Positions 5,358-64,000 of a stretch of DNA of 64,000 nt are shown here, piece by piece. Location: IMG/VR virus record IMGVR_UViG_3300030099_007635, positions 41,431 through 105,430 of that record. One strand, given 5' to 3'. Origin of the DNA: a virus. Below the pieces are notes generated by a model. It worked only from the letters and a program-made list of their open reading frames with translations. It made no database searches and had not been told where the DNA came from. Positions within the stretch are counted from its first letter, which is position 1. The number at the start of each line of letters is the position of its first letter. The translations under genes were made by a program, and so were the position numbers.

Positions 5358-5761
5358 AGATAAATATCCTGTTTCTTAAATAATGATGCCGCAATTTCAT
5401 CTTGCGGATAAACCTCTGCTAACTTTATATCGTTAGCCTTGCAGAAGTCAAGTTTCTTCTCGTCTCTTTTTAGCTGGTCGGAATATTTGAAACGATTTTT
5501 GTGAAAAAACTTAACATATTTTGTGTGTTGTGCTCCTTGAACCTCCACAGCGATTTTTTTATTAGCATTGTAAAAATCTAAAGTTAATCGGCTCCCAACA
5601 ACTCTGAACTCCTCAAAAACAATATCATTCTTCCAATAAGGATACAAAAATTTTTTAACAGAAGTTTGAAACTTGCTGCGGCTGGGTTTTTCCCAGTCTA
5701 TTAAATATTTTTTTGCGTTTTTAAGGTTTCTCTCTTTGCCATATCCATCAATAAACTTCAT
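5354..5761 (-). CDS. Small restriction-endonuclease-like (Vsr/DUF559-type) nuclease
   Basis: LDFY...IAVEVQGAQH...RDEKK..FC. Confidence 0.7.
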   Translation of the reverse strand: MKFIDGYGKERNLKNAKKYLIDWEKPSRSKFQTSVKKFLYPYWKNDIVFEEFRVVGSRLTLDFYNANKKIAVEVQGAQHTKYVKFFHKNRFKYSDQLKRDEKKLDFCKANDIKLAEVYPQDEIAASLFKKQDIYL

Positions 5762-6870
5762 GCGCCTATTTGTTCCTTAAAATAATCTATTAAAAATTTA
5801 CATAGATCTTTATTTTCTTCAACTGTCTTGAAGAGATTGTTGTCTCCTTGTATTTTTTCAGGAAACTCCAGATTATTGGAGTCGAGAAGCTCCTTAAAGT
5901 CTTCAGTAGGCTTAATCCAAGCCCCCTTCTTTTCTACGAACTCCCAAGCATAAAGGAGATCAATAACCTCCTTCTCGATCCAGATAGATGTGCCTCCCGT
6001 GCGCCCATAACGAATTGGGTAGGATACTGTAGTGTTCGTATTTTCATGAGCAGACTTTTTGATTGTAACTTTTGCATGATGTCCAATAATTGGATTTTTC
6101 TTGGCATCCATGGTTTTAACGGCGGGATTTTTAAGAATCAAATCTCCTTTAAAGCGAGGTTCAAACTCCATAATGTTATTCGCAAAGTGGAGTAACGCAT
6201 TTCCTCCTGTCGCTGTAGTTTGACGCACGGGTGCTTTAGAGTATGGATCTAGCTTAATGTCTGCTCTTACCTGACTGATGAATATCGCCATGTGTCCACG
6301 CTTTCCTAGTGCAGTGCTTGTCTTTTTGCAAAAGTCAGATGCAATCACTGCTCCCCCAGCAACCTTACTGCTTTCTTCAAAATTCTTTCCAAAATCGTCT
6401 TTTTTGATTAGGCCATCTACTGAATCCAATATAAAACAATATTTAATCTTATCATCATTGTTAGTAATGAGTTGGCGAATAAGTCCCATTGCTGTTTCAT
6501 AAATATTGCTTTCAAAAACAAAACAGGTTCCATCAACCCATTCTTCTGGCGTGAAAACGAATTTTACCCCAGATCTTTCTTGAACCTCAGGTCCAAGCCT
6601 ACCCTCTGCTTTAATATATAGACCTCTGGATTTATCAAGGTTTCCCAGAAAGTTCTTCATTACCTGTAATGACTCTGAGGTTTTTCCTCCCTCATTAACG
6701 CCAGTAAAACGGTGAAGCCCAGGTCCAAAACCACCTGCCAAATACAAATCTAGCTGTAACGATCCACTAGAAACCTTATATTCCACTGTCTCTTCAAAAT
6801 TATAATGATCATCCTTATTTGCCTTTAGGTAATTACCAAGAATGTTTTCGGGGTTTACATTTTCACTCAT
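5758..6870 (-). CDS. recA: RecA/UvsX-like recombinase
   Basis: SSGSLQLD, Walker A GVNEGGKT, Walker B ILDSV, IFISQVR, TGGNALLHF. Confidence 0.9.
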   Translation of the reverse strand: MSENVNPENILGNYLKANKDDHYNFEETVEYKVSSGSLQLDLYLAGGFGPGLHRFTGVNEGGKTSESLQVMKNFLGNLDKSRGLYIKAEGRLGPEVQERSGVKFVFTPEEWVDGTCFVFESNIYETAMGLIRQLITNNDDKIKYCFILDSVDGLIKKDDFGKNFEESSKVAGGAVIASDFCKKTSTALGKRGHMAIFISQVRADIKLDPYSKAPVRQTTATGGNALLHFANNIMEFEPRFKGDLILKNPAVKTMDAKKNPIIGHHAKVTIKKSAHENTNTTVSYPIRYGRTGGTSIWIEKEVIDLLYAWEFVEKKGAWIKPTEDFKELLDSNNLEFPEKIQGDNNLFKTVEENKDLCKFLIDYFKEQIGA

Positions 6871-40830: not shown

Positions 40831-41582
40831 AGCTCACCTTTTTCCATCTGCTCGATAAGTGAGTTAAACTCATCAGGAGAGGAGGCTTGGTTGAAGAACC
40901 AGAAAGCCAAAATATGGGTGACCTTTTTAATTACATCTCCGTAAAAATCAGAAGCCTCATCTTCCTTGAGATAATAGTCTTCAATTTTTTCTTCAAAATC
41001 TTCTCCTTTGAAATAAGGAATTGGTTTTTCGTCGTCTTCACCCTGAATATAAGTCAACATTAAAGAATACCATAGTAGCAGACGATTTTGAGCTTTAATA
41101 TCAGCAGTGTGGTCAAAAAGAGACTGCATAGTGCTTTCAGCCTCAACAATATCCCTCTTAGTCTTTGCAAGTTTGTCTTTAAGTTCATCTAGACGCTTCT
41201 TTTGTTTTTCTGTTTTCTTATCAACAACCTCAAGTCTAGCATATTCATTTTGAATATCAAAAATCTCTCTGTATAGCTTTCCATAGTCTTTTGCATCTTC
41301 TTCACTCCAGACCCCACCCGTATCGCTATACTTTTTGTAAAGCATGGCCTTTGTTAAAATACCTTTTTTGACACAACGACTCATTTCAACAGAGTATTCA
41401 AGTTCTGCATCCTCTAATTCACGACGAGACGGCCTCTTAAGCCTAATCTGAACTGGAACTTTCTCCTTTACCTTTTTGGTAACGGTTGTCTCCTCACCTG
41501 TCTTTTTGTTTTTTCGAGTATGAGTCTTCTCGATCTCCTTCTCTTCGTCAACAGTAAATGTGTATAATTCTTTAAAATCCAT
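40827..41582 (-). CDS. Hypothetical coiled-coil, possible tail assembly chaperone
   Basis: Position, charged helical sequence. Confidence 0.5.
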   Translation of the reverse strand: MDFKELYTFTVDEEKEIEKTHTRKNKKTGEETTVTKKVKEKVPVQIRLKRPSRRELEDAELEYSVEMSRCVKKGILTKAMLYKKYSDTGGVWSEEDAKDYGKLYREIFDIQNEYARLEVVDKKTEKQKKRLDELKDKLAKTKRDIVEAESTMQSLFDHTADIKAQNRLLLWYSLMLTYIQGEDDEKPIPYFKGEDFEEKIEDYYLKEDEASDFYGDVIKKVTHILAFWFFNQASSPDEFNSLIEQMEKGEL

Positions 41583-56027: not shown

Positions 56028-57066
56028 CTTGTTGACCAATTCCTAAAACTCTTGCTTTCCATTCAGACATTCCCTCTAATCTTTCGGCTTCCTTCTTCAC
56101 TGCTTCTTTTTGCATCTCTGCTATCTTAATCATCGTTTTTCTCTCCTCTTCTTCCTGAAAGAGTTGAACAATAGATAGAAACGAAGCATTTTCTTTCTGC
56201 ATCTTCTTCATTCTCTCACCTCGATCACCCTGTAGCTTCTTCGTTAGATTCTCAATGCGAGTTTCACACTGATGATACTCAGAACTCTTAGCCTTGATGA
56301 TTTCAGCCAAGCGAATAGACATTTCTGCCTGTTCATCGGCCTCATCAAACATATTGTTCAATTTATTGAGGTGAGCACTAATAACCTCCAAATTAATTAC
56401 CTCCTTGCAGACATTTAAATACAAATTAATTTCATCTGCTGTTAGATCGGGCTTATCCCATGTTAAACGTATAAACTCATGCTCAAAGAGAACTCGATCC
56501 TCTTCATTGAGATAATTATTAATAATCTTTAGAAATCTTGAGTTAGAAAGATTAACTCCAAGTTTTTCAACACAAACTTGCTTTTGTCTGTTAAGTTTTG
56601 GTTCATCTAAGCCTAGCCCAGTAGCATCATTGATTTTTTTGATGATTCGTGATGGAGACTTAGGTGAAATGTATGAACTCAGCGCCCCGCTATCTTGTGA
56701 TGGCAAGATATCTGGATTAACAGCACGAATTTCAGCTAGCACTGCTCTTTGCTCAGAACTTAATGGCATTACTCTTCGATCTGAAAAAACAATTCGCGCA
56801 ATTTCCAGTGAAGACAAACCTGTCTCAGCTTGTTGAATGATGAATTCACGCTGTTCGCGTGTAAAGTCGATGACTTCCGCTGGTGGGCGACCTGTGGTTT
56901 TAAAATCTATTGAATTTTCTACCAAAAACTTCCTGACAGCCCTTCCTTCCTTAGACCTTCCGTCTAAAGAGTCATCATCGAAACACTGTTTCGTCAAATC
57001 AATCAAATTTGGAATTCTAGAGGCGTTTTCACGCAAAAAGTCCTTTTGTTCTTTAGAAAGGTCCAT
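56017..57066 (-). CDS. Hypothetical HTH/coiled-coil protein (possible terminase small subunit)
   Basis: SSLEIARIVF HTH-like segment, C-terminal coiled coil, upstream of terL. Confidence 0.4.
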   Translation of the reverse strand: MDLSKEQKDFLRENASRIPNLIDLTKQCFDDDSLDGRSKEGRAVRKFLVENSIDFKTTGRPPAEVIDFTREQREFIIQQAETGLSSLEIARIVFSDRRVMPLSSEQRAVLAEIRAVNPDILPSQDSGALSSYISPKSPSRIIKKINDATGLGLDEPKLNRQKQVCVEKLGVNLSNSRFLKIINNYLNEEDRVLFEHEFIRLTWDKPDLTADEINLYLNVCKEVINLEVISAHLNKLNNMFDEADEQAEMSIRLAEIIKAKSSEYHQCETRIENLTKKLQGDRGERMKKMQKENASFLSIVQLFQEEEERKTMIKIAEMQKEAVKKEAERLEGMSEWKARVLGIGQQDVL

Positions 57067-57757
57067 CTCCTATAATATCTTCTTCGTTTAGGATTTCAAA
57101 GGCCGTCTCTAGAAACTTCTTTTTCAAGTTCTTTACTTGTCGATAACCTAACTTCTTTTTTTGAGGGGATATCTTGTATCCCATAAATCGAGCAACGTCT
57201 TCTTCAGTCTTATCCTCAAAATATAACATTCTGTAAGCCACATAGTGCATGTCGCTTAATTTCAACTCCATAAAGAAATCAAGCCGCCTAAGAGAAACGT
57301 CAAAATTGAAATCAGTGTATTGTTTAGACTTAACCTCCTTAGCAAAATCCTCAGTAGAAAGAGGCATCTTAAGTTCTAAGCCTGTTTTCTTTGACTTTTC
57401 CCACTTCGCATAAAGCTTGCAACTACTGTCCTGTTTTTTGCTAGTCGTTGAGGCACAATCTTCGCCTCGGGCAAATTTACAGCTAGAGCAGGGTTTGACA
57501 TAATTGCCATAGTGGTTCCTGACTAAGTTTCTAATCTGGTTGGAGATGATTCTACCTATCCACGGCTCAAGGGGTCTCTCCTGATCCCACATATGCCACT
57601 TTTTGGCTATGTGTAATTTAATGATCTGCTCTACATCTTCAAAATCAAACCACCTAACAGCTTTCAGTCTCCACTTAAACTGTTGCCTCTTAATAGCGGC
57701 ATCTATGATGTCTGAAAAATCTTCGTAAGTATACTCACCCTTCTTTTTTCTTTTCAT
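57053..57757 (-). CDS. ECF-like sigma factor with Cys4 insertion
   Basis: DFEDVEQ...WDQERPLEPWIGRIISNQIRN (region 2), C..C...C...C insert, EEDVARFMGY (region 4). Confidence 0.7.
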   Translation of the reverse strand: MKRKKKGEYTYEDFSDIIDAAIKRQQFKWRLKAVRWFDFEDVEQIIKLHIAKKWHMWDQERPLEPWIGRIISNQIRNLVRNHYGNYVKPCSSCKFARGEDCASTTSKKQDSSCKLYAKWEKSKKTGLELKMPLSTEDFAKEVKSKQYTDFNFDVSLRRLDFFMELKLSDMHYVAYRMLYFEDKTEEDVARFMGYKISPQKKKLGYRQVKNLKKKFLETAFEILNEEDIIGDGPF

Positions 57758-58073
57758 CAATAAATTCATCAACAGAGCGACTCTTTCTTCCCTCTTCGTT
57801 TTTTCTAGACGGTGGCTCGCCTATTAATGAACCTAATGTGATAGTATTTCGTGAGTCTTCTACCTCATACTGAAAATTTGCAACTACAGGAACAGAATTA
57901 GAGTCGGTTTCATCTGAAGATACTAAAACAGACTTTTCAATTGTGGGTAGTCCTGCGGCAGTATTAGTTGAAACGCTATTGCCAAGCTGAGTTCCGCATT
58001 TACTGCAAAAATTTGGCTTTGCGTGAGCATATGAAATTTTAGTTCCACAACTTTGACAAAATAGGTGAGCCAT
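57735..58073 (-). CDS. Zinc-ribbon protein
   Basis: FCQSCG...NFCSKCG. Confidence 0.75.
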   Translation of the reverse strand: MAHLFCQSCGTKISYAHAKPNFCSKCGTQLGNSVSTNTAAGLPTIEKSVLVSSDETDSNSVPVVANFQYEVEDSRNTITLGSLIGEPPSRKNEEGRKSRSVDEFIDEKKKEG

Positions 58074-58164: not shown

Positions 58165-58193
58165 TTGACATTTGCTCTTGTTTTACATATAGT
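58165..58193 (+). promoter_or_regulatory. sigma70-type promoter antisense to phoH
   Basis: TTGACA-N17-TATAGT. Confidence 0.5.
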
Positions 58194-59793: not shown

Positions 59794-59813
59794 TTTTTCA
59801 TATTACACTCATT

Positions 59814-59975
59814 TTACTGGTTGCCTACCACCATAAGGCCAAAATTAGCGGTAGCGTATGAGATCCATATAATACCCCAACCAAAATCCCTCTTCATGAA
59901 GTAAGCAGTCCCCACCACCGCATACATAATACCCGCAACCAAAGGGACAAACTTAGTGATCAAGTCGAGATTCAT
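59814..59975 (-). CDS. Small two-TM membrane protein (53 aa)
   Basis: MNLDLITKFVPLVAGIMYAVVGTAYFMKRDFGWGIIWISYATANFGLMVVGNQ. Confidence 0.6.
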   Translation of the reverse strand: MNLDLITKFVPLVAGIMYAVVGTAYFMKRDFGWGIIWISYATANFGLMVVGNQ

Positions 59976-60207
59976 TTTTTGATTATATAGGGGGATGATT
60001 TTTTTTAAACAATAAAATAAGCCTTGCGCCCCGAAAATACCCGTCCAGAGAAATGGGGAGGGGAATGCCCGTTGACAGATTGAGAAAATACTCCCCCCGC
60101 GAATTAGTGTAAAAAACCTCTTAAAAATTTTTGAGAAATGGGTGGGGGTTTGAACGTTGTCAAGTTCTTTTTTAAAGAAAAAAAACGAAAATAAATGCTT
60201 TTTTCTC

Positions 60208-60236
60208 TTGCTTTTCTCTGAGATCTGTGGTATACT
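60208..60236 (+). promoter_or_regulatory. Early promoter P1
   Basis: A-tract, TTGCTT-N17-TATACT with TGTGG extension. Confidence 0.8.
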
Positions 60237-60261
60237 TACAGAGTAATAAGACAATAAAGCT

Positions 60262-60498
60262 ATGACTAACTTGACTACCACACTCACCGCCGCTATCGCC
60301 TCCGCTGTTCGCCTTGCTCCTCGCTTCGCCAATGAAGATGGCGAGTTGATCTTTAACTCTCTGATGGACTGGTATCCTACGCTCACCGAAGGTCACGCTG
60401 ATATGATCGTGCGCCGCGCTTGCATGAATGCCACGGCTGGCTCCAAGGCTGTTGGCTGGGATACCTTCGCCGCCGATCTCCTCAAGGAGATGGCTTAA
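60262..60498 (+). CDS. Early hypothetical protein
   Basis: 78 aa after P1. Confidence 0.75.
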   Translation: MTNLTTTLTAAIASAVRLAPRFANEDGELIFNSLMDWYPTLTEGHADMIVRRACMNATAGSKAVGWDTFAADLLKEMA

Positions 60499-60516
60499 AA
60501 AAAAATAAAATAAAGC

Positions 60517-60545
60517 TTGCTTTTATCCTGAATCTATCGTATACT
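60517..60545 (+). promoter_or_regulatory. Early leaderless promoter P2
   Basis: TTGCTT-N17-TATACT-6nt-ATG. Confidence 0.8.
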
Positions 60546-60551
60546 TACCAT

Positions 60552-60743
60552 ATGAAAATCAAAGACACTACCACAAAGTCCGATCTCGACAAGTTCCACA
60601 CTGAGCGCAAGGCGGCGCAGGTAATGCGGGATGATCTCAACTTCCTTATGGGATGGATCAAGCCCGACTGCCCACAGGGTGCATCTGCCCTTGAGCGTAT
60701 CCTTAAGGCTCACGAACAAAACAGAGAGCAAAGCTGGCTCTAA
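60552..60743 (+). CDS. Early protein (63 aa), paralog of 63050..63238
   Basis: MKIKDTTTKSDLDKF...HEQNREQSWL. Confidence 0.8.
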   Translation: MKIKDTTTKSDLDKFHTERKAAQVMRDDLNFLMGWIKPDCPQGASALERILKAHEQNREQSWL

Positions 60744-60761
60744 AAAAAAAGAAAATAAAAC

Positions 60762-60790
60762 TTGCAATCCTCTTAAACCTATAGTATACT
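60762..60790 (+). promoter_or_regulatory. Early leaderless promoter P3
   Basis: TTGCAA-N17-TATACT-6nt-ATG. Confidence 0.8.
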
Positions 60791-60796
60791 TACAGC

Positions 60797-61051
60797 ATGA
60801 AAGATAAGCAAACACCCTTCTTCGTTCTCTTCGGTAAAAAGAAAACTCACCGTGGCATCTCTGGCGAGATCTGCTTCGGTGGCAACTGGAAGCGCGAAAA
60901 GTGCGAGCGTCTCATCCGTAACCCTTTCGCTAAGATAGCCGAGGGAACTGGTCGCATTGTCGAGTTCCCTAGCCGTGAAGCGGCATGGGAGGCACACGGC
61001 GAACAGCTTGACATCGCGCATGGTCGCGTGAGCTTCGGCATAGGTCGATAA
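60797..61051 (+). CDS. Early hypothetical protein
   Basis: 84 aa after P3. Confidence 0.75.
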   Translation: MKDKQTPFFVLFGKKKTHRGISGEICFGGNWKREKCERLIRNPFAKIAEGTGRIVEFPSREAAWEAHGEQLDIAHGRVSFGIGR

Positions 61052-61090
61052 CAATCACCCAACACAATAATAACCTACCTAACTAAACAA

Positions 61091-61327
61091 ATGAAATTGT
61101 TCCTTAACAACTGGCTTCATCATACGCTAACCGCTATGCTCATCACTCAAACCTTCATGCTTGCGCTGATTGTGTTTGTTGTCTACTACTCAGGCACAGA
61201 GATAGCATGGCAATTCGTTAAAGAGTTTTACCCTAGTATGTGGCTACCACTCAGCACACTACCCGCTATCATCATCACCCTACCTGTCGCATTCCTCGAC
61301 GCAGTAATCTATAAGCAGAAAGCATAA
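61091..61327 (+). CDS. Early two-TM membrane protein
   Basis: Two hydrophobic stretches. Confidence 0.7.
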   Translation: MKLFLNNWLHHTLTAMLITQTFMLALIVFVVYYSGTEIAWQFVKEFYPSMWLPLSTLPAIIITLPVAFLDAVIYKQKA

Positions 61328-61329
61328 CC

Positions 61330-61449
61330 ATGGACAAGAGAGCACAATCCAAACACCGTAAGCAACTGAAGCGCAACCGCAAGAATAAAATCATTCGGAT
61401 GCAGAAGGTTGCCGAGAAGCGCAGAAAAAAACTTCAAAAAACAACTTGA
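61330..61449 (+). CDS. Very basic 39-aa peptide
   Basis: Not in track; MDKRAQSKHRKQLKRNRKNKIIRMQKVAEKRRKKLQKTT. Confidence 0.55.
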   Translation: MDKRAQSKHRKQLKRNRKNKIIRMQKVAEKRRKKLQKTT

Positions 61450-61482
61450 CATGTGGTAGTGTTAAGAGCAAGTAAAAACCCC

Positions 61483-61561
61483 CGTAACTCCTTGATACTC
61501 AGGGAGTTGCGGCGGGCGGGCCTCCCCGCGCCGCGCAAGTCGTTGATAGTCAACGACTTAC
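61483..61561. repeat. 79-bp double-palindrome element, copy 1
   Basis: CGTAACTCCTTGA-TAC-TCAGGGAGTTGCG, GC-rich hairpin, GCAAGTCGTTGA-TAG-TCAACGACTTAC. Confidence 0.95.
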
Positions 61562-61608
61562 ACAGCTTAATACGCAGAAAAAAAATGCAATAAAAACAAA
61601 AAAAGAAC

Positions 61609-61637
61609 TTGACTTTTATCTCAGGGTGTGGTATAGT
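61609..61637 (+). promoter_or_regulatory. Early leaderless promoter P4
   Basis: TTGACT-N17-TATAGT (TGTGG)-5nt-ATG. Confidence 0.85.
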
Positions 61638-61642
61638 TAGCC

Positions 61643-61870
61643 ATGCTTACATCATATGACCTTGTTGTTTCCGCTCTCCGTTTCATCCGCTTCGACGTTT
61701 CTAAGGCTCATCGCTACGCGATGCTTGTTGATGCCTTCGATGGCGTTGCTGATGTCGATAATCACACCATTCACAAGGTGCTGTTGCTGGCATACGATGC
61801 CCGTGACAAGGGCGACGATATCCGCGACTTTCGCGGCACTTGCGAGTTTATCCATCGGATGGCTTGCTAA
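61643..61870 (+). CDS. Early protein, distant paralog of 63291..63635
   Basis: VD..T...DA...DIR.FR..CE.I shared. Confidence 0.75.
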   Translation: MLTSYDLVVSALRFIRFDVSKAHRYAMLVDAFDGVADVDNHTIHKVLLLAYDARDKGDDIRDFRGTCEFIHRMAC

Positions 61871-61893
61871 GTGAAAAAAAGTGAAAATAATTC

Positions 61894-61921
61894 TTGCTTT
61901 TATCTCAAATTCGACTATACT
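61894..61921 (+). promoter_or_regulatory. Early leaderless promoter P5
   Basis: TTGCTT-N16-TATACT-6nt-ATG. Confidence 0.75.
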
Positions 61922-61927
61922 ACTACC

Positions 61928-62221
61928 ATGACAAATCAGGAAGCATACAACCACGGTTACAACGGCACTCTCACCCTCGACGAGCTTATGGCTCAGTTTG
62001 AGGCTCCCGCCTGTCACGCATACGATGAGCCGCCGCAGTTCTCTGCGTGGCGGTCAGGGGCAGAGGATGCCGCGTATGATGCGGAGTCTGATGCCGCCGA
62101 GTGCGACATGGAGCCTGATGACTTCATGACTGACGGCGAGGCTGATGCCGATGCGCTCGCCTCCGCTGGCTGGGGGACGGATGAGGATTATGGCTTCTAT
62201 GGCGACGAGTGTTTCGCGTAA
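61928..62221 (+). CDS. Highly acidic early protein (97 aa)
   Basis: Start MTNQEAY; ends DADALASAGWGTDEDYGFYGDECFA. Confidence 0.8.
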   Translation: MTNQEAYNHGYNGTLTLDELMAQFEAPACHAYDEPPQFSAWRSGAEDAAYDAESDAAECDMEPDDFMTDGEADADALASAGWGTDEDYGFYGDECFA

Positions 62222-62228
62222 GAAGCGC

Positions 62229-62307
62229 CGTAACTCACTAAGGCTCAAGCACTTGCGGCGGGCGGGCATGCCCGCGCCGCGCAAGTCGTTGATACTCAAC
62301 GAGTTAC
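62229..62307. repeat. 79-bp double-palindrome element, copy 2 (left palindrome degenerate)
   Basis: CGTAACTCACTAAGGCTCAAGCACTTGCG-GCGGGCGGGCATGCCCGCGCCGC-GCAAGTCGTTGATACTCAACGAGTTAC. Confidence 0.92.
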
Positions 62308-62402
62308 AACACAAAATATAAGCATAGTCTGCGGGGGCTGTCAAGTAAAAACTTACTATTTGTCTATTTTTTTTCTGAGCTAGAAAAAAAGAATAAAAAA
62401 GC

Positions 62403-62430
62403 TTGCGTTTCGGTGGGGTTGTGGTATAGT
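62403..62430 (+). promoter_or_regulatory. Early leaderless promoter P6
   Basis: TTGCGT-N16-TATAGT (TGTGG)-6nt-ATG. Confidence 0.8.
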
Positions 62431-62436
62431 TACACC

Positions 62437-62580
62437 ATGACAGACCGATACATTGTTTACCATCAGTGGTCTAAGGATGAAGAGTTCCGAGGCACACGCG
62501 CAGAGTGCGAGGCTTGGGTTGCAGCTTTCAACCTTCCCAAGTTCGCCAAAACCTTTTTTATATGCCACGAAAGCAAATAA
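62437..62580 (+). CDS. Early 47-aa protein
   Basis: Not in track; MTDRYIVYHQWSKDEEFRGTRAECEAWVAAFNLPKFAKTFFICHESK. Confidence 0.7.
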   Translation: MTDRYIVYHQWSKDEEFRGTRAECEAWVAAFNLPKFAKTFFICHESK

Positions 62581-62597
62581 AAAAGAATAAAAATCCC

Positions 62598-62626
62598 TTG
62601 ACAAATACCGCAAGCTGTGGTATAGT
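62598..62626 (+). promoter_or_regulatory. Early promoter P7
   Basis: TTGACA-N17-TATAGT (TGTGG). Confidence 0.85.
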
Positions 62627-62666
62627 TACCTATAATAAAACATTAACTTAACTCTAAAAACTACCT

Positions 62667-62996
62667 ATGAAATTCTCTATCTCTACTCTCACTGACCTCT
62701 TCCACAAGTTCCCCTCTTCTGAGGCTTTCCGCACTGACAAGTTTCGCGAGGCTCTTAACGATAAAGTGGTGGACTACTGTGCCGCCGATTCACGCGATGG
62801 CAAGGATGTCATTCGCAAGTTCATCGTCCATGACGTTGACTCTTCATGGATTGCCGAGTCTAACGGCAATGCTGTCATCTCTGTCGATGTCGTTGAGGTC
62901 GAGGGCGGCGAAAATCGCCAAATCAACATGACTGTCGGCAGGATCGAAAAGATCAACGGGGAGCCTGTCCCCGAAGTCGTCAAGTGGGTCGGCTAA
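62667..62996 (+). CDS. Early protein, possibly WYL/SH3-like fold
   Basis: VVDY...G...RKF...RQINMTVGRIEKI pattern. Confidence 0.65.
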   Translation: MKFSISTLTDLFHKFPSSEAFRTDKFREALNDKVVDYCAADSRDGKDVIRKFIVHDVDSSWIAESNGNAVISVDVVEVEGGENRQINMTVGRIEKINGEPVPEVVKWVG

Positions 62997-63015
62997 AAAA
63001 AACTGAAAATAAATC

Positions 63016-63043
63016 TTGCGTTTATCTCAATCTGTGGTATAGT
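63016..63043 (+). promoter_or_regulatory. Early leaderless promoter P8
   Basis: TTGCGT-N16-TATAGT (TGTGG)-6nt-ATG. Confidence 0.8.
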
Positions 63044-63049
63044 TACATC

Positions 63050-63238
63050 ATGAAAACGAAAGAGACCAAAAAGTCCGACTTCGACAAGTTCACCACCGAG
63101 CGCAATGCCGCGCAGGTAATGCGGGACGATCTTTGCTTTCTTGTTGGTTGGATCAAGTCCGACTGCCCACAGGGAGCGTCTGCCATTGAGCGCATCTTGA
63201 AAGCGCACGAACAGAACAGAGAGCAGGACTGGCTGTAA
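63050..63238 (+). CDS. Early protein (62 aa), paralog of 60552..60743
   Basis: MKTKETKKSDFDKF...HEQNREQDWL. Confidence 0.8.
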   Translation: MKTKETKKSDFDKFTTERNAAQVMRDDLCFLVGWIKSDCPQGASAIERILKAHEQNREQDWL

Positions 63239-63256
63239 AATAAATCAAAATAATCC

Positions 63257-63284
63257 TTGCGTTTATCTCAATCTCTGCTATACT
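63257..63284 (+). promoter_or_regulatory. Early leaderless promoter P9
   Basis: TTGCGT-N16-TATACT (TGC)-6nt-ATG. Confidence 0.8.
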
Positions 63285-63290
63285 AATATC

Positions 63291-63635
63291 ATGACAGTTA
63301 AGAAACCAGCATTCATCTACGCCCTCATCGTTGAAACCCTCAAGGCTTGTCGCACCAAGGAAAGGGGAACAGGATGTTCTCTTGAGGGGAAGGTTGACAC
63401 CTATACCGCCGCCGTCATTATCACCATGTGCAAGGACGCAGTTGAGGAGCGGCGTGATATCCGCGAGTTCCGCAAGGTGTGCGAGGAGATACTCGCCGCC
63501 ATCTTGCGCTTGCGTAGGGACACGCGCCCAGACATTCACCCGCTCTGCCGCCATAGGCTAACCAAGGAGGAACTCATGTTAGTTACCGATGACCTCACCG
63601 TAGAGCCACAAATTGAAGCCAACCAAGTCTGGTAA
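63291..63635 (+). CDS. Early protein, distant paralog of 61643..61870
   Basis: 114 aa after P9. Confidence 0.75.
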   Translation: MTVKKPAFIYALIVETLKACRTKERGTGCSLEGKVDTYTAAVIITMCKDAVEERRDIREFRKVCEEILAAILRLRRDTRPDIHPLCRHRLTKEELMLVTDDLTVEPQIEANQVW

Positions 63636-63661
63636 AAAAAAGAAAAAAAACCGCTTGACAA

Positions 63662-63740
63662 CGTAACTCCTTGATACTCAGGGAGTTGCGGCGGGCGGGC
63701 CTCCCCGCGCCGCGCAACTCGTTGATACTCAACGACTTAC
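63662..63740. repeat. 79-bp double-palindrome element, copy 3
   Basis: Identical to copy 1 except two positions in the right palindrome. Confidence 0.95.
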
Positions 63741-63787
63741 GCAAGTTACTACGCAGAAAAAAAATCACCGAAACGCAAAAAAACTTC

Positions 63788-63816
63788 TTGACTTTTAAAT
63801 CAACCTGTGGTATAGT
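63788..63816 (+). promoter_or_regulatory. Early leaderless promoter P10
   Basis: TTGACT-N17-TATAGT (TGTGG)-5nt-ATG. Confidence 0.85.
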
Positions 63817-63821
63817 TAGGC

Positions 63822-64000
63822 ATGAAAATGAATGACCTTCCTACCACCTTCGTCCTCACTGGAAACTTCGGTCCTTACGCGGCTGGCACTACCTTCTCCG
63901 TGGAGTGGGCTGAAAACAGGGGTATGCAACTTGATACTAATGCTGGAGAACTCAAGTGGTTCTATGCTACAAAGTTTATGCACCAGCTTATGGGTGCGAT
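63822..64000 (+). CDS. Early protein, runs off window
   Basis: MKMNDLPTTFVLTGNFGPYAAGTTFSVEWAENRG... open to the end. Confidence 0.7.
   Translation, partial: MKMNDLPTTFVLTGNFGPYAAGTTFSVEWAENRGMQLDTNAGELKWFYATKFMHQLMGA

Follow-up and report, generated by a model that had tools for sequence, protein, structure and literature searches.

Putative leaderless promoter–gene cassettes in a shuffled, probably early array of an uncultured marine tailed phage

Near the end of a 64,000-nucleotide (nt) stretch of the IMG/VR virus record IMGVR_UViG_3300030099_007635 (positions 41,431 to 105,430 of that record; hereafter the window), small genes are packed one behind another, most of them starting directly behind a promoter of the same design. 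This array contains open reading frames (ORFs) E1 to E12, promoters P1 to P10, and three copies of a 79-nt element (Table 1; positions are those of the window). The locus raises two questions. Does transcription of these genes begin at their start codons, and are the promoter–gene units exchanged among related phages? Both answers are probably yes. We favor an early array that depends on host RNA polymerase and consists of leaderless promoter–gene cassettes shuffled by recombination.

The whole window was scanned with the regular expression TTGNNN-N16/17-TATA(C/G)T, and positions 59800-64000 were also read directly. Ten plus-strand matches were found within 3.7 kb. All ten had an A-rich tract upstream, and six had TGTGG (an extended -10 of the TGn type) directly before the -10 hexamer. 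The start codon lay 5 nt past the -10 hexamer at E6 and E12 and 6 nt past it at E2, E3, E7, E8, E10, and E11. All eight of these close-set starts were ATG. The ATGs of the leadered pair, E1 and E9, lay 25 and 40 nt past the -10 hexamer, respectively. E4 and E5 had neither a promoter of their own nor a Shine–Dalgarno (SD) sequence, and E3, E4, and E5 were read as an operon. No SD sequence was found when the regions upstream of all window genes were checked. At seven junctions, the stop codon of the preceding gene lay inside the next A-tract. A terminator scan found nothing between the units; its two plus-strand matches fell within ORFs. The promoter units folded no better than shuffled sequences (z scores from -1.4 to +1.4).

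A first-order Markov simulation of the region yielded 0.10 promoter-like sites (maximum 2), versus the 10 observed, and 0.006 sites with an ATG at 5-7 nt, versus the 8 observed. On both strands of the remaining 60 kb, 21 loose matches were present, and just two of them had an ATG at 5-7 nt. The GC content was 0.46-0.49 at 60-64 kb versus about 0.37 in the rest of the window. At third codon positions (GC3), it was 0.60 in the early ORFs (range 0.52-0.70) versus 0.34 in 21 long ORFs elsewhere. The promoter units had a GC content of 0.31. The original prediction had described ten near-consensus promoters of one design in 3.7 kb, eight ATGs 5-6 nt past the -10 box without an SD, stop codons embedded in the next A-tract, no classic terminators between units, and coding parts richer in GC than the rest of the window. 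The scans and counts above recovered each of these features.

Relatives were retrieved by scanning viral contigs for TGTGGTATAGTTA-N2-3-CATG. Of the 53 loci obtained, about 26 were related: their structural genes shared 65-84% DNA identity, and they contained homologs of E1-E12. The window and its relatives (27 sequences) provided 118 non-redundant promoter–ORF units. The spacer was 16-17 nt in 117 of the 118 units, and the ATG lay 5-7 nt past the -10 in 105 of them, 77 of these at 6 nt. The base at -1 was C or T in 104 of the 105 units with an ATG at 5-7 nt, and A stood at +1. E1 was leadered in the relatives too (35-42 nt). Bacterial RNA polymerase preferentially starts on a purine that follows a pyrimidine and is located six or seven bases past the -10. 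As both bases stood at the preferred distance, the A of the ATG is the predicted +1. This geometry strongly suggested that transcription starts at the A of the ATG and gives leaderless messenger RNA (mRNA).

An identical TGTGGTATAGTTACCAC-ATG was also present in four unrelated phage contigs with 57-59% GC (L034, L046, L008, and L029), before small ORFs starting with MVK or MVN. The occurrence of this word in unrelated, GC-rich phages indicated that the leaderless promoter design is not confined to the present lineage.

Substitutions between equal-length orthologs numbered 195, 139, and 543 at codon positions 1, 2, and 3, respectively. E11 is a distant paralog of E6. In the E6/E11 family, a conserved first helix began 3-9 residues past the ATG, an invariant Tyr was located at residues 4-9, and no alternative in-frame start was present between the promoter and the first helix. 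These features show that the array genes are real coding frames, with starts well anchored at the promoter-adjacent ATGs. E1-E11 were searched against Pfam and PHROGs. The only match was that of E7 to a PHROG of unknown function, and the searches revealed neither an integrase nor a replication or packaging gene in the array. For E9 and E11, the ESM Atlas returned phage sheath and Gag clusters with scores below 0.9, which were treated as noise. AlphaFold models were built for E11 (four helices; predicted local distance difference test (pLDDT) score 66) and E9 (pLDDT 60). A fold search with both models found no PDB fold at E<=0.001. These searches spoke neither for nor against the host-takeover or anti-defence role proposed in the original prediction. 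E4 is probably a membrane protein, as judged by inspection of its hydrophobic sequence. E2 and E10 were paralogs.

The gene order was then compared among the relatives. The window order is E1-E2-E3-E4-E5-element-E6-E7-element-E8-E9-E10-E11-element-E12. With families missing from the window left out, the order is E8-E1-E10..E5-E3..E11-E9-E7 in L003, E8-E1-E10..E5-E1'-E3..E11-E6-E7 in L039, and E3-E5..E6..E9..E12 in L028 and L052. L036 and L025 have the left half of the window's array minus E4, and E8 heads the array in several relatives. The earlier claim that cassettes are exchanged was put to a test for fixed order, and the orders were found to differ. Shuffling of promoter–gene cassettes among relatives is thus supported by the sequence comparison.

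The places where homology breaks were also located. Among 167 ends of blastn homology blocks, 83 fell in promoter units, which make up 18% of the region, and 23 in elements, which make up 7%. Many of the remaining ends lay very close to a start or stop codon, only a few bases away. The promoters of individual genes differed as well. A 40-nt leader preceded E9 in the window and was conserved in L027, L028, and L052. In L003, E9 was leaderless, and its fusion to a promoter of the element-associated type placed the ATG at exactly 6 nt. E3 orthologs were 94-95% identical in protein; the promoters of the window and L054 shared the -10 half and not the -35 half, and the L003 ortholog had a quite different promoter. 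In the near-identical strain L001, E2 was pieced together from parts of the window's E2 and parts of E10, its paralog.

Two other studies provided contigs that covered the 4.2 kb of the region in 100-200 pieces. Both ends lay in promoter units, start codons, or elements in 13 of the 15 listed joints. One joint (62999 to 63242) removed the E10 cassette from A-tract to A-tract. Another (61639 to 62667, with CCAC between) was the leaderless E9 fusion, and two connected element to element. Two joints that go back were compatible with circles or duplications, and were not decisive. As these joints come from metagenome relatives of 88% likeness, they represent different arrangements rather than events within a single genome.

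Two side observations concern exchange within genes. E7 had two alternative C-terminal halves among relatives (L036, L003, and L054), with lengths of 97 aa versus 76-77 aa, indicating a swap within the gene. The first 15-16 bases, ATGACAGTTAAGAAA (encoding MTVKK), were common to three unrelated protein families (window 63291-63305, L051 8601, L011 7389, and L032 6174). Such a head on unrelated families suggests that some recombination joints fall within the ORF, a few codons past its start. N-terminal 'stamping' of unrelated proteins was considered as a general rule and rejected, as only a few cases were found (MTVKK, MKIK, and MKNN).

In at least 15 relatives, the contig breaks off within the array (L001, L003, L011, L018, L025, L027, L028, L033, L036, L039, L044, L047, L052, L054, and contig C20 of G003, the bacterial genome described below). 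The tiling offsets of the windows cut from this phage genome suggest that window position 64000 is a contig end as well. Either repeats and strain mosaics break the assemblies at this place, or the genome physically ends there, possibly with a terminal repeat.

Besides the promoters, the 79-nt element is the second repeat of the array. Copies 1 and 3 in the window share a 56-nt exact run, and nhmmer found 66 copies in oriented loci. The element consists of two 27-nt palindromes, with the consensus GTAACTCGTTGA-NNN-TCAACGA(C/G)TTAC, flanking a GC-rich centre (about 24 nt, 90% GC). The centre differed in sequence in 57 of 59 aligned copies, and it was slightly more stable than shuffles (z score -0.8). 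RNAalifold found no consensus fold for the element copies. In the two outer hairpins, 82.1% of cells were paired, equal to the shuffle mean of 82.1, and variable stem positions were mostly uncompensated, so no covariation was detected. No T-run followed the element, and it had no Rfam match. An RNA structure or terminator was rejected as the main reading of the element because covariation, a consensus fold, and a U-tract were all lacking. Since the arms are conserved in sequence without covariation or a consensus fold, they were read as DNA palindromes. They could serve as the site of a dimeric protein or constitute a mobile repeat that is dispersed. It is unlikely that they are a selected RNA structure, though they are still able to fold in RNA.

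Parts of promoters were found around the element. A leaderless promoter was present within 95 nt downstream in 25 of the 66 copies, often at +45, and TTGAC(A/T) within 40 nt upstream in 28 of the 66, often 2 nt away. The mirror word TGTCAAGT occurred 12-20 nt after many copies. Inward-facing half promoters bracketed many copies (window 61420-61452 and 63633-63661; L018, L027, L028, L039, and L052), and the arrangement at 63633-63661 was kept in L028 and L052. The 3' end of E5 encodes an A-tract and TTGACA; the TTGACA at 61447 overlaps the E5 stop codon and abuts a degenerate TGTGGTAGTGT. A half promoter plus element was rejected as a working promoter because the best -10-like hexamer, GATACT, was only 12 nt past TTGACA. 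Cassette 4 together with element copy 1 constitutes a 163-nt unit that is repeated at 63662. On the minus strand, a promoter-like TTGACA-18-TATATT (62344 to 62315) faces leftward, running into element copy 2 and in the direction of the E7 3' end. An antisense RNA or an element-containing RNA could be its product.

These arrangements leave some room for a two-layer system that has not yet been described, in which leaderless welds are combined with the 79-nt double palindrome and its inward-facing half promoters. In the first layer, promoter–ORF welds may enable a phage whose host does without SD sequences to express any captured ORF at once, from its first transcribed base. In the second, the palindrome may be a DNA site bound by a protein, such as an operator or roadblock for early shut-off, or a target of site-specific recombination or mobility; it may act as an insulator between cassette groups and transfer such groups, each as a block, among unrelated phages. 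We regard this system as a speculative and rather unlikely possibility.

Known systems were considered for comparison. In the promoter/stem-loop (PeSL) cassettes of the T4-type phages RB49 and phi1 (Arbiol et al. 2010, PMC2839356), each unit contains a stem-loop that acts as a terminator or attenuator, an SD sequence precedes the start codon, and mini-circles are released when units recombine. The present array resembles them in several respects. The stop codon of the preceding gene falls within an AT-rich tract that leads into a strong sigma70-like early promoter, and the tract upstream of the -35 was present in all 10 window units (118 units with the relatives included). The units precede ORFans in a hyperplastic region, and they border the places where relatives differ by an insertion, a deletion, or a replacement. 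A recombinase is encoded by the phage itself, and a structured element followed by a promoter recurs, here as the 163-nt unit. In contrast to PeSL cassettes, the promoter units of the array have no stem-loop and no SD, and the start codon is at the predicted +1. The 79-nt element is separate, occurs only every 2-5 genes, and is a sequence-conserved double palindrome without covariation or a U-tract. The phage is also not of the T4 type. The analogy to PeSL cassettes drawn in the original prediction therefore stood for the A-tract with its embedded stop codon, the sigma70-type promoter, the ORFans, and the shuffling, and failed for the stem-loop within the unit and the SD. As the array lacks both and belongs to another kind of phage, it appears to evolve like a PeSL array without being a member of the PeSL family.

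In function, the host-takeover module of the Bacillus phage SPO1 contains 26 small genes (PMC6873191). By analogy, this module is the nearest functional picture for array genes that have no recognisable function. The pre-early and early regions of T5 and T7 are comparable to it. All these regions, like the array, are compact blocks at a genome-map end, with small early genes mostly of no known function and many strong host-type promoters. They differ in having SD-bearing leaders and fewer promoters than genes, whereas the array has nearly one promoter per gene and no leader.

Leaderless genes whose -10 adjoins the ORF are known in Actinobacteria and Deinococcus-Thermus, and in lambda cI transcribed from PRM. 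Shell et al. reportedly described the architecture of such genes in 2015. The array shares with them a TAnnnT-type -10 located 5-7 nt before the AUG, the lack of an SD, and the AUG start. The difference is that the array applies this design systematically to phage early genes, with full -35/UP promoters and with predicted transcription starts. In the literature that we searched, no systematic leaderless early array was described for a phage early region. A study of phiKZ found no leaderless phage transcript.

The proteins encoded in the window were used to characterize the phage. They include a 2393-aa tape measure, a portal-like protein, a ribonucleotide reductase, the large terminase (TerL), PhoH, a weak sigma-like protein, DnaB- and RecA-like proteins, and a GDP-sugar pathway. 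A DNA search of 50,697 phage records gave no match to the early region, and TerL shared only about 25% identity with cultured phages, at most 29% with terminases of cultured Bacillus and Clostridium phages. The tape measure size, TerL, and the DNA search indicate that the phage is not T4-type. Rfam at gathering thresholds gave no match in the entire window, and a tRNA scan found none.

A clue to the host came from the phage Gmd, whose top bacterial match (73%) was in a metagenome-assembled genome (MAG) of Flavobacteriaceae (G003). The same MAG contains two related-phage contigs (C20, 8091-9983; C42, 3950-5803), with TerL 77% and 55% identical. These contigs are a weak host hint, or a binning artefact. 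The hint agrees with the phage in that no SD was found in the window. Flavobacterial sigmaA prefers TAnnTTTG, and leaderless or nearly leaderless mRNAs make up 5.5-13% of the total (PMC9723704, PMC6847099). TAnnTTTG, the Bacteroidota -7 motif, was present upstream of only 2 of 29 phage genes, so a flavobacterial host is a tentative suggestion.

Taken as a host-dependent leaderless array, the locus would work as follows. It would be the early hyperplastic region, dependent on host RNA polymerase, of an uncultured marine tailed phage with a genome above 100 kb, whose host would not use SD sequences. Each small ORFan would be welded to its own strong sigma70-type promoter with a UP-like A-tract. 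A discriminator of 5-6 nt ending in a pyrimidine would let transcription begin on the A of the ATG, and ribosomes would bind directly to the 5'-terminal AUG of the leaderless mRNA. Since there are no terminators between units, and since E4, E5, E1, and E9 start without an SD on leadered RNA, read-through from upstream promoters would probably yield polycistronic messages as well. The promoter units (about 60 nt) and the 79-nt composite palindromes would serve as dispersed repeats. Homologous or microhomology recombination at these repeats would add, delete, swap, and re-promote cassettes, producing mosaic orders, and the phage's own RecA/UvsX-like protein would be at hand.

Several points weigh against this reading. 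The geometry counts are partly non-independent, as the retrieval pattern guarantees one promoter–ATG unit per locus and only the rest are independent. Promoter activity and strength, early timing, and a transcription start at the ATG are all read from sequence geometry. We infer the recombination mechanism from the breakpoints, and selection for intact genes leaves breakpoints at gene borders after any recombination, so the repeats are a presumed rather than a proven substrate. Finally, the sole host hint points to Flavobacteriaceae, a group with TAnnTTTG sigmaA promoters and few leaderless mRNAs.

The strongest competing explanation accepts the promoters as real and attributes the proteins mainly to long read-through transcripts. 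Ribosomes would start internally on the A/U-rich, unstructured RNA copy of each promoter, and the geometry would be a by-product of compaction. The missing terminators are consistent with this, as are the SD-less starts of E4, E5, E1, and E9 on leadered RNA and the low GC and lack of structure of the promoter units. Hosts that do without SD sequences, such as flavobacteria, use A-rich unstructured leaders (PMC6847099). However, internal initiation needs no fixed distance, yet 105 of 118 units had the ATG at 5-7 nt and 104 of these 105 a pyrimidine at -1. E9, after its change of promoter, sits at exactly 6 nt. We therefore consider read-through unlikely as the main route; leaderless and internal initiation can coexist.

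The motif might also be the site of a phage-specific factor (the sigma-like protein or a virion-borne polymerase) or a signal associated with recombination or gene starts. The phage encodes the weak Sigma70_r2 match, and the motif differs from TAnnTTTG, should the host be a flavobacterium. Against these points, a full canonical promoter stands in register, comprising a UP-like A-tract, TTGAC/TTGC, 16-17 nt, TGn, and TATAnT. Eight of the 29 late-type genes have another motif, GTGTAA, upstream, the 2393-aa product is no polymerase but a tape measure, and the same promoter word occurs in the unrelated phages of 57-59% GC. A phage-specific factor is thus very improbable.

Assembly chimeras could in principle mimic mosaic orders if short reads jumped between strains at promoters and at the 56-nt exact repeat common to element copies 1 and 3. 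The contigs of at least 15 relatives that end within the array would fit, as would the shattering of the region into 100-200 short contigs in two studies. But the same alternative orders recurred in assemblies of different samples (L003/L054/L032, L028/L018/L052, L036/L025, and L011/L039), which argues against chimeras. Orthologs differed by 5-35% in sequence, like real lineages, and exact runs common to promoters were only about 20 nt, under the usual assembly k. We give chimeras hardly any weight. That the block is a foreign mobile island or satellite rather than the phage's own early region is scarcely credible, since the sharp jump in GC3 and the location at the contig end are outweighed by its constant position in many relatives, where it adjoins the same three genes (phoH, a 285-aa gene, and a membrane gene), and by the failure to find integrase, replication, or packaging genes in it.

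The surroundings of the array provided further observations. In the divergent region, a 30-nt direct repeat (60048-60077 and 60133-60162; GAGAAATGGGG..TTGACA type, G-rich) was present, and relatives had related words in the corresponding position. On the minus strand, the first gene (ATG at 59975) encodes a hydrophobic product and is preceded by TTTAAA-16-TATAAT (59975-60009), which ends 6 nt before the ATG and so repeats the leaderless geometry of the array on the opposite strand. A plus-strand consensus TTGACA-17-TATAGT (58165-58193) is directed antisense into the 3' end of phoH. GTGTA(A/T) was located 6-21 nt upstream of 8 of 29 late-type gene starts (for example 25879, 41913, 45930, 47067, 53212, 58925, and 59803). 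It is a candidate late promoter, and its genes would also have very short leaders.

Table 1. Coordinates of the array, its repeats, and two other genes of the window (aa, amino acids)
Feature	Positions	Strand	Promoter	ORF	Start codon
RecA-like (RecA/UvsX-like) gene	5758-6870
Sigma-like protein, weak Sigma70_r2 match	57053-57772
Divergent control region, minus-strand late/middle genes versus plus-strand array	59976-60207
Cassette 1	60183-60498	+	A-tract; P1, -35 60208, -10 60231-60236	E1 60262-60498, 78 aa	leadered
Cassette 2	60497-60743	+	P2, -35 60517	E2 60552-60743, 63 aa	6 nt past -10
Cassette 3	60741-61051	+	P3, -35 60762	E3 60797-61051, 84 aa	6 nt past -10
E4 and E5	61091-61449	+		E4 61091-61327, 78 aa, hydrophobic; E5 61330-61449, 39 aa, Lys/Arg-rich
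79-nt element copy 1: 27-nt palindrome, GC-rich centre, second 27-nt palindrome	61483-61562
Cassette 4	61573-61870	+	A-tract; P4, TTGACT 61609, TGTGGTATAGT	E6 61643-61870, 75 aa	5 nt past -10
Cassette 5	61871-62221	+	P5, -35 61894	E7 61928-62221, 97 aa, very acidic	6 nt past -10
79-nt element copy 2	62230-62308
Cassette 6	62380-62580	+	P6, -35 62403	E8 62437-62580, 47 aa	6 nt past -10
Cassette 7	62578-62996	+	P7, TTGACA 62598, TGTGGTATAGT	E9 62667-62996, 109 aa	40-nt leader without SD
Cassette 8	62994-63238	+	P8, -35 63016	E10 63050-63238, 62 aa	6 nt past -10
Cassette 9	63236-63635	+	P9, -35 63257	E11 63291-63635, 114 aa	6 nt past -10
Half promoter abutting element copy 3	63633-63661	+	A-tract and TTGACA
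79-nt element copy 3	63665-63743
Cassette 10	63760-64000	+	A-tract; P10, TTGACT 63788, TGTGGTATAGT	E12 from 63822, cut by window end	5 nt past -10

The host-dependent leaderless array is thus our preferred reading of the locus. The array would account for the contig breakage seen in this phage group, and the sequenced variants provide a base-resolution map of recombination joints. The E9 alleles, one type with a 40-nt leader and the other leaderless, are a natural, ready-made experiment. If the starts are truly leaderless, a whole early programme would run on mRNAs without ribosome-binding leaders, both here and in the lineages with the same promoter word. This would bear on the way in which phages gain control of translation in marine bacteria that do without SD sequences, on early blocks as GC-rich islands, and on the capture and trial of ORFans.

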